From IMG/VR virus record IMGVR_UViG_2565956716_000008: a stretch of DNA of 40,864 nt; one strand, 5' to 3'. Below, piece after piece: positions 37,955 through 38,264 of the stretch. A model generated the notes under the pieces. The model ran no database searches. It worked only from the letters and a program-made list of their open reading frames with translations, and was not told where the DNA came from. The position numbers and the translations under genes are program-made. The DNA comes from a virus. Taxonomy: Duplodnaviria > Heunggongvirae > Uroviricota > Caudoviricetes. How positions within the stretch are numbered: the first letter of the stretch is position 1; each line of letters opens with the position of its first letter.

Positions 37955-38203
37955 TTAGTGAACAAACCACTCGTCAGCAGATTCCCAGGTATCTTTCAGA
38001 GTCTCCTGAACAAAAGTTTTTGCAGAATCCTTATCTGCGGTGCGTGTAACAGAAAGGCCATCGTTGCTGGTGGCTTTTACGATCACCTCTACATCGTCAT
38101 AACGTTTACTGATGCGTCGGGTTAATTCTTCCTTTAACGCATCCACAGCACCGGTTGGCATTTTAGTCATTTTTTCTTTGGCTATGCAGATTTCAATACG
38201 CAT
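37955..38203 (-). CDS. DinI-like SOS-response protein
   Basis: 82 aa, MRIE...[10 protein letters not shown] DinI signature; LexA boxes in promoter. Confidence 0.7.
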
Positions 38204-38216
38204 AAAAGTCCCTCTA

Positions 38217-38264
38217 TACTGTGTTTGTATACAGTATTATTTTTAACTGTATAGATAAACAGTG
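38217..38264. promoter_or_regulatory. two LexA (SOS) boxes overlapping DinI-like promoter
   Basis: TACTGTGTTTGTATACAGTA (38217-38236) and AACTGTATAGATAAACAGTG (38245-38264); minus-strand TTGACA-17-TAAAAA. Confidence 0.6.

Follow-up and report, generated by a model that had tools for sequence, protein, structure and literature searches.

Why would a prophage carry, at its very edge, a gene for a DinI-like protein beneath two apparent LexA operators, and does such a gene act on the induction of the prophage itself or on the SOS response more generally? The stretch analysed here (hereafter the window; 40,864 nucleotides, IMG/VR record IMGVR_UViG_2565956716_000008) is an E. coli prophage inserted in the 5' end of dusA. 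It is of the mEp460/SKA5 type and combines lambdoid early and regulatory genes with a Mu-like contractile tail and an invertible tail-fibre segment. At its right end, reading along the minus strand, the dusA junction is followed by the gene of a dusA-specific type of tyrosine integrase (39362-38265; Pfam Phage_integrase, E=1.1e-20), which adjoins dusA (39451-40488), and then by the dinI cassette (38268-37852). Directly downstream of the integrase gene, the open reading frame list gives a minus-strand coding sequence of 82 aa (37955-38203) with DinI matches in Pfam, PHROG and PDB profiles, called 'DinI-like family protein' in RefSeq. Convergent with this unit is a plus-strand gene for a DNA invertase (37248-37811). 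Neither the sequence nor a terminator scan of the window gave a terminator between the integrase gene and dinI, and in the integrated state int is set apart from the early left operon. At dusA, int is followed by dinI in this way in 718 genomes. The repressor gene, of the cI type (6692-7345, minus strand), codes for a helix-turn-helix and an S24 peptidase domain (Pfam HTH_3 and Peptidase_S24).

The original prediction set this gene under a minus-strand promoter with two LexA boxes, and all that it located for gene, boxes and promoter is present in the sequence as it had described. The promoter consists of the -35 hexamer TTGACA (38268-38263) and, behind a spacer of 17 nt, TAAAAA (38245-38240). 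Within the -10 region TAAAAAT (38239-38245, minus strand) AAAAAT can also be read, with an 18-nt spacer, and this is the form preferred by the promoter scan (10/12 matches); by itself that scan is not above chance (3 sites vs 5.2 expected). The same promoter is annotated in the GenBank entry of mEp460 (JQ182728). The integrase gene is indeed adjacent, since it ends inside the -35 hexamer, which overlaps its stop codon (38265-38267). On the other side, a Shine-Dalgarno sequence GAGGG (38210-38214, minus strand) stands 6 nt 5' of the ATG, and homologues have a purine-rich block in the same place.

Both boxes fit CTGT-N8-ACAG. In minus-strand reading the proximal one is TACTGTATACAAACACAGTA (38217-38236, core 38219-38234) and the distal one CACTGTTTATCTATACAGTT (38245-38264, core 38247-38262). 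The -35/-10 spacer is exactly filled by the distal 16-nt core, and 3 nt past the -10 hexamer the proximal box sets in, which covers the predicted +1, in keeping with the earlier placement of the boxes over spacer and start region. The operators overlap the predicted core promoter of dinI. CTGT-N8-ACAG cores occur four times in the window where 0.38 would be expected, and a count this high came up in 0 of 100 shuffles. A LexA-box scan had been proposed as a check, and we carried it out as a count of matches, out of 20, to the E. coli LexA consensus TACTGTATATATATACAGTA. The proximal box scores 17/20 and the distal one 16/20; a single further site in the window, at 14596, reaches at least 14/20, and the next best score is 13. 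A control scan with 41.6 kb of E. coli chromosome including lexA-dinF and uvrA-ssb returned the lexA operators (15 and 14), the uvrA/ssb operator (15), the dinI pair and nothing else, so that the consensus scan gave no false positives in about 82 kb. As lexA and uvrA/ssb reach 14-15/20 in the same scan, the dinI boxes are at least as consensus-like as textbook SOS operators. The contacts between LexA and DNA are said to have been described by Zhang et al. in 2010. Judging from these operators, LexA would be expected to bind the cassette of the window and the SOS response to induce it.

A comparison of homologues, gathered from viral contigs, from one genome per species and from specific protein clusters, shows how widely this arrangement is kept. 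At least one CTG-N10-CAG lies within 130 nt upstream in 73 of 80 dinI-homologue loci of the Enterobacterales; the seven loci without a box include Yersinia second genes that stand directly behind another DinI-like ORF. Among the 80 loci, the two-box layout is confined to a phage-type clade of 82-aa proteins (56-100% identical to the window protein). Genes of the chromosomal type, K-12 dinI included, have a single box at about -37. We aligned 13 diverged phage-type promoters from Escherichia, Salmonella, Pantoea, Trabulsiella, Mixta and Erwinia, with a mean column identity of 67%. The invariant columns are exactly TTGACA, the distal CTG...CAG, the proximal TG...CAGT and the ATG, and 5' of the -35 the 13 promoters are not alignable. 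The distal CTG...CAG always abuts TTGACA. The distance from box to box varies between 24 and 29 bp among homologues, which rejects a fixed helical phasing between the boxes and indicates that each is anchored to its -35 or -10 element rather than to the other box. This comparative evidence, together with the experiments on homologues cited below, strongly supports the reading of the gene as LexA-controlled.

That its product is DinI-like, as the original prediction held, is borne out by profile searches. Pfam DinI (PF06183) matches over profile positions 1-63 of 63 with E=1.1e-19 and 70.9 bits, against a cutoff of 24.2; a structure-profile search finds E. coli DinI (1GHH/7YWA, E=3.7e-13); and phrog_189, 'RecA filament binding protein DinI', matches with E=5.7e-31, covering only positions 71-149 of the 151-position profile. 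The score against the NCBIfam DinI equivalog NF007893 is 73 bits, below the cutoff of 111, and we therefore regard the protein as a paralogue, a member of the phage-type clade, and not as a DinI orthologue. Given this score and an identity of 49% to E. coli DinI, biochemistry equal to that of the latter is not guaranteed. In the RecA-DinI cryo-EM structure, a hydrophobic pocket of L13, L21, W71, W77 and F78 receives RecA F203, and an acidic patch of E24, E69 and D76 faces RecA K232/R243/K245 (PMC9926225). In the phage protein the contacts L13, L21, E24, E69, W71, D76, W77 and F78 correspond to M15, L23, E26, D71, W73, E78, W79 and F80; five of the eight are identical and three conservative (L13 to M, E69 to D, D76 to E), and these positions are mostly invariant across the 82-aa clade. 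As the contact residues are retained, binding to RecA filaments is the best-supported of the activities that we infer for this protein.

We consider it probable that the locus is a LexA-repressed cargo cassette of the prophage, coding for a RecA-filament-binding DinI paralogue that damps late SOS outputs. DinI was reportedly shown by Yasuda et al. in 1998 to inhibit the RecA coprotease; physiological DinI is said, after Lusetti et al. in 2004, to stabilise RecA filaments and block UmuD cleavage and to hardly affect LexA cleavage. In a healthy lysogen, host LexA dimers would sit on both operators, filling the spacer and covering the start site, and would jointly exclude RNA polymerase, while cI silences the remaining prophage. 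DNA damage would give rise to RecA filaments and through them to LexA self-cleavage, upon which the strong TTGACA promoter would fire independently of prophage induction and yield the 82-aa paralogue. This protein most likely sits in the groove of the RecA-ssDNA filament like E. coli DinI, its hydrophobic pocket taking RecA F203 and its acidic C-terminal helix facing RecA K232/R243/K245. Bound in the groove, it would make the filament more stable and would be a competitor of slowly cleaved substrates that bind there, such as UmuD and cI-type repressors, and the net effect to be expected is that late SOS outputs (mutagenesis, prophage induction) are damped or delayed.

Would this extend to the repressor of the window prophage? 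Its translation contains a VQAGS motif with the Ala-Gly site, a GDSM serine and a TLKK lysine, features which suggest a cleavable, autocleaving repressor of the S24 type that is presumably a RecA*-dependent substrate. Since the prophage cI is of this type, the tuning of RecA-dependent repressor cleavage by the DinI-like protein, as put forward in the original prediction, is plausible. Competition with cI cleavage is also structurally reasonable, because cI appears cleavable, the RecA contacts are kept and DinI engages the same elements of the RecA groove as lambda CI (PMC9926225). Any effect of the phage protein on the window cI is proposed here on sequence grounds. In Salmonella prophages, non-polar deletions of the dinI homologues carried by Gifsy-1 and Gifsy-3 left induction levels and rates unchanged (PMC3121763).

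The distribution of the cassette bears on the same question. Among near-identical copies, homology runs from the -35 to a GC-rich hairpin, in two upstream and at least ten downstream contexts, mostly where the prophage ends and tail-fibre genes adjoin, and 100% identical copies are present in many E. coli genomes. Stx-converting and other lambdoid phages have the same block, of roughly 430 bp and without the window integrase, close to the right end of their genomes, and diverged relatives stand at the extreme prophage edge, beside host genes and convergent with tail-fibre assembly genes. We found promoter and coding sequence in 1684 of 5426 complete E. coli genomes, in up to 7 copies, the annotation always being 'DinI-like family protein'. 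The unit of promoter with operators, gene, structured 3'UTR and hairpin is self-contained and very common. With its own promoter, its own 3' end, a place among conserved phage modules and variable contexts it fits the definition of a moron, the hairpin in the window having no U-run. The freedom of the cassette from any particular repressor or integrase argues equally for general SOS-damping cargo and for a tuner of induction.

Of further interest is the 3'UTR of dinI, which is 107 nt long and holds two structures. The first, SL1 (37889-37933, minus strand), was recognised by folding and pairing and has a GGCUGG/CCAGCC stem and a near-invariant 23-nt loop, CAUUCAAUACUCGCACUAUCGAA (37901-37923). 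The second is the GC-rich hairpin that ends the cassette (37852-37887); it is the terminator in other contexts, and here it is followed by CUUCC without a U-run and is common to the convergent invertase gene. The terminator scan did not call the window hairpin at 37852-37887, and as it has no U-run, transcripts may run on, antisense to the invertase gene. The 3'UTR folds with -36.4 kcal/mol (z=-3.65). In 112 distinct copies, placed by fixed offsets, 90% of the SL1 stem cells are paired, vs at most 58% in shifted controls, with G-C to A-U compensations, and the stems of the hairpin likewise covary between copies. Where third codon positions are 41-51% identical to those of the window, the 3'UTR is 75-80% and SL1 78-89% identical, and in these diverged cassettes the 23-nt loop has scarcely changed. 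A pattern scan placed the module behind DinI-like ORFs of two families, the 82-aa type (about 18) and an MsgA-like one (about 20), and without a DinI gene in about 45 places, one of which has a promoter-like site directly upstream; because the pattern required the SL1 loop sequence, loop invariance among these hits is circular. About 97% of E. coli genomes have, between ecpE and ykgJ, a decayed dinI remnant in which the module persists with about 90% identity, and it is this remnant that makes 97% of them match the module.

The 3' end could be an uncharacterised, mobile, SOS-inducible regulatory-RNA module under LexA control, made up of SL1 and the hairpin, which we offer as a tentative suggestion. 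A further step would be to take RNA as the chief selected product of the cassette, the 3'UTR being freed as an SOS-inducible regulatory RNA and the DinI-like protein being a secondary or dispensable passenger. The much better conservation of 3'UTR and SL1 than of third codon positions points in this direction, although recent modular recombination could give high identity without selection. The compensated stem and the stability of the fold speak for a functional RNA, but the window hairpin lacks the U-tail that is typical of Hfq-dependent sRNAs. The module follows two different DinI-family genes, stands without any and survives in the ecpE-ykgJ remnant; on the other hand, many diverged cassettes have unrelated 3'UTRs. 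A precedent exists in Klebsiella DinR, which derives from the dinI 3'UTR (PMC10907235), whereas the dinI strand of the window 3'UTR matches no Rfam family and a full-text literature search for the loop sequence gave no match. The DinI frame, too, is intact and the RecA contacts are mostly invariant across the clade, so that the protein is clearly under selection. We think it unlikely that RNA is the main product.

The likeness to the Klebsiella pneumoniae dinI-DinR system lies in a LexA-controlled dinI transcript with a conserved 3'UTR before the terminator (PMC10907235). The conserved 3'UTR of DinR is lineage-specific and its ftsZ-pairing stretch specific to Klebsiella, and the resemblance to the phage 3'UTR is conceptual. 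On the opposite strand, Rfam CssrB gives a weak match to the hairpin only. Two known small RNAs were considered for the module and rejected: the preprint on Pas does not mention dinI, and EcsR2 lies in another intergenic region, yagU-ykgJ. A paper on RhsFI was also discarded as a source on dinI, the string there coming from a hyphenated 'guanidinium'.

The closest relatives of the window cassette are those of mEp460 (gp21), SKA5 and RefSeq dusA prophages, whose DNA from int through the promoter to dinI is about 97% identical. In mEp460 the gene, the integrase and a sigma-70 promoter are annotated and the LexA operators are not; otherwise it is the same element. E. coli chromosomal dinI (1GHH, 7YWA) shares fold family, length, RecA contacts and a LexA-boxed promoter with the phage gene. 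It differs in its one box and in its short 3'UTR with a simple terminator, where the phage has two boxes and the long structured 3'UTR described above. The dinI-like c0943 of CFT073 moves with sulA, umuD and recN (PMC2817434). A preprint on radioresistance in EHEC was rejected as evidence on prophage dinI; it concerns the chromosomal dinI and lexA.

More distant in setting are the dinI homologues of Gifsy-1, -2 and -3, which belong to the same 82-aa clade at about 74% identity and resemble the window gene in that a LexA box overlaps the promoter and the preceding sequence is unrelated. They head LexA-controlled operons that also code for antirepressors, and DinI accumulates after mitomycin C (Lemire et al., PMC3121763); with nalidixic acid the Gifsy dinI genes rise 4.6- to 23-fold (Mérida-Floriano et al., PMC8072944). 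These genes are reported to have one box (PMC8072944), as against two near-consensus boxes in the window, and they lie inside the prophage near replication genes with an antirepressor gene downstream, whereas the window dinI is monocistronic and stands at the prophage edge. Tum of coliphage 186 and the split tum of PSP3 and Fels-2 are likewise LexA-controlled, with a DinI-like domain of the same PHROG.

It has to be asked, then, whether the window holds an antirepressor switch after the manner of 186 Tum or of Gifsy dinI-antirepressor-irsA, in which LexA cleavage frees a protein that directly inactivates the repressor. The Gifsy operons headed by LexA-controlled dinI homologues, and Tum as a fusion of antirepressor and DinI (PMC3121763), speak for the idea, and PHROG 189 merges both kinds of protein. 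The window protein, however, covers only the part of that profile noted above and lacks the N-terminal antirepressor half of Tum. Moreover, the 143 nt from the dinI stop to the invertase gene contain no minus-strand ORF of at least 40 aa and are a structured UTR. The Gifsy type of operon pairs a non-cleavable repressor with an antirepressor; in the window no such ORF follows dinI and cI has an S24 peptidase domain and an Ala-Gly site, and a cleavable S24-type repressor needs no antirepressor. With no downstream ORF and no N-terminal domain, we reject a Gifsy-type operon or a Tum, and regard a switch of this kind as very improbable next to the proposed LexA-repressed cargo cassette.

It is just as improbable that the LexA sites serve the integrase, either by holding up read-through from int or as an operator controlling an antisense promoter that points into the 3' end of int, which would couple excision to the SOS response. 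The boxes do start 1 bp beyond the int stop codon, int has no terminator of its own and, when integrated, it lies away from the early left operon. Nevertheless, in many prophages with no upstream integrase dinI still has this promoter-operator block, homology sets in only with the -35, and in all homologues the boxes are tied to the -35 and -10 elements of dinI. A block that travels with dinI and without the window integrase does not belong to int, and we rejected this assignment.

Finally, it is scarcely credible that the boxes arose by chance in AT-rich DNA, or that the cassette is a functionless, decaying remnant. The region is indeed rich in AT, its promoter-like sites do not exceed the number expected from shuffles, and truncated dinI remnants exist. 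A chance origin is nonetheless rejected by the shuffles (none of 100 gave the observed core count), by a consensus scan with positive controls and without false positives, and by a cross-genus footprint in which the half-sites are invariant amid diverging surroundings, a conservation that effectively refutes it, while the ORF is intact and its functional residues are conserved in thousands of copies.

How much of this is new? LexA-controlled prophage dinI is known already in Salmonella, and E. coli phages and genomes carry annotations of this very cassette. The observation holds but is an ordinary one, since the SOS cassette is very common and already annotated in mEp460, SKA5 and RefSeq; it is nothing new in kind, and as it stands adds little. 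Its wider meaning lies in the two-operator promoter, a conserved signature that marks the phage-type DinI clade throughout Enterobacterales, the chromosomal dinI having one box, and in the fact that extra predicted SOS-inducible RecA modulators are carried by about one complete E. coli genome in three, O157:H7 having several copies. Such extra prophage copies could have consequences for the induction of Stx phages, for SOS mutagenesis and for the response to quinolones; a prophage DinI-like gene has been associated with the emergence of quinolone resistance (PMC10575684). A phage with a cleavable cI, as that of the window appears to be, is the right setting for asking whether prophage DinI paralogues brake induction. 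If the tentative reading of the 3' end as an RNA module were true, this module, a LexA-DBD-only protein and a LexA-boxed methylase gene would make up a multi-part interface of the prophage to the host SOS network.

The first of these two additional components is a phage protein of 108 aa encoded at 10677-11003, which shares 43% identity with LexA residues 1-91 and lacks a peptidase domain. For comparison, the LexA homologue of Bacillus phage GIL01 is a transcriptional activator (PMC6182141). The other is the third LexA box of the window (16/20, at 14596), which falls on codons 3-9, at the start of a gene for a DNA methylase that lies downstream of Q. Its CTG-N10-CAG is kept in copies of the gene that are 78-86% identical (phiP27, Stx2a phage, Klebsiella phage), and the neighbouring codons vary.

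The 3'UTR of the prophage's DinI-like gene (dinI here), on the minus strand at 37852-37954, forms a structured, conserved module. It includes the stem-loop SL1, whose 23-nt loop is near-invariant (CAUUCAAUACUCGCACUAUCGAA), and a second, covarying hairpin, and the module is more conserved than synonymous sites. The same module is found after MsgA-like genes of the DinI family and also on its own. No Rfam family was matched by it, and a literature search for its sequence found no paper containing it. In E. coli, the ecpE-ykgJ intergenic region, downstream of the ecp fimbrial operon, harbours a decayed and truncated dinI-like gene (comparison locus L298, 2860-3100) that retains the module at ~90% identity. 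Among 5426 complete E. coli genomes, 5243 match the module, mostly via this remnant.

The convergent dinI and invertase genes share a hairpin (37840-37890) that in this setting is followed by a U-run on neither strand; SOS-driven dinI transcripts might therefore run on antisense into the invertase gene, which switches a tail-fibre segment at 35040-37171.

Some dinI homologues in Yersinia (L150, L156, L142) have no LexA box because another DinI-like ORF, with a product ending in ...EADQWLVIDI, directly precedes them; these are tandem dinI paralogues within one transcription unit. At a Salmonella locus adjoining prfC (L174-L177, 3116-5236), a large gene for a colicin/pyocin-S-like bacteriocin with Cloacin and Pyocin_S domains comes after the two-box dinI-like cassette and runs in the same direction. 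DinI-like proteins and bacteriocins of this kind are both typically SOS-linked.

A third near-consensus predicted LexA box, TACTGTAAAAATAAACAGTG (14596-14615), matches the E. coli consensus at 16 of 20 positions and starts 8 nt inside a DNA methylase ORF (14588-15640) that follows the gene for the Q antiterminator. The CTG-N10-CAG core of this box is kept in phiP27, Stx2a_WGPS2 and a Klebsiella phage, with different flanking codons. The methylase gene is preceded by ~150 nt of non-coding DNA (14440-14587) in which long stretches, among them AATGGGCGGCTGGTGGGTGTT, GGTCACAAGC, GCGCAAAAGC and TGAGCCTA, are invariant between phages with an overall identity of only 78-86%. This region could be a late promoter/terminator region or a structured RNA.

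The prophage also encodes, on the plus strand (10677-11003), a 108-aa protein of phrog_362 that comprises the LexA DNA-binding domain only, is 43% identical to LexA residues 1-91 and lacks the S24 peptidase domain. Among the residues that we take to be LexA contacts, its recognition helix retains S39, N41, A42 and E45, and E44 is replaced by V. This LexA-like protein would be uncleavable, and the phage encoding it itself has three strong LexA boxes.

An Rfam match to STnc100, a prophage-associated sRNA (Rfam), lies on the minus strand at 5718-5940; its score is barely over the gathering threshold (49.1 versus 47 bits). An ORF of unknown function, 5220-5900, overlaps this match with its 5' part. 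The prophage has, at its attL-proximal end, a plus-strand gene for a SocA/Panacea-domain protein (1-573), which is followed, with a 4-nt overlap, by a plus-strand ORF of unknown function (phrog_19071, 570-989); this layout is that of a putative Panacea-type toxin-antitoxin pair.
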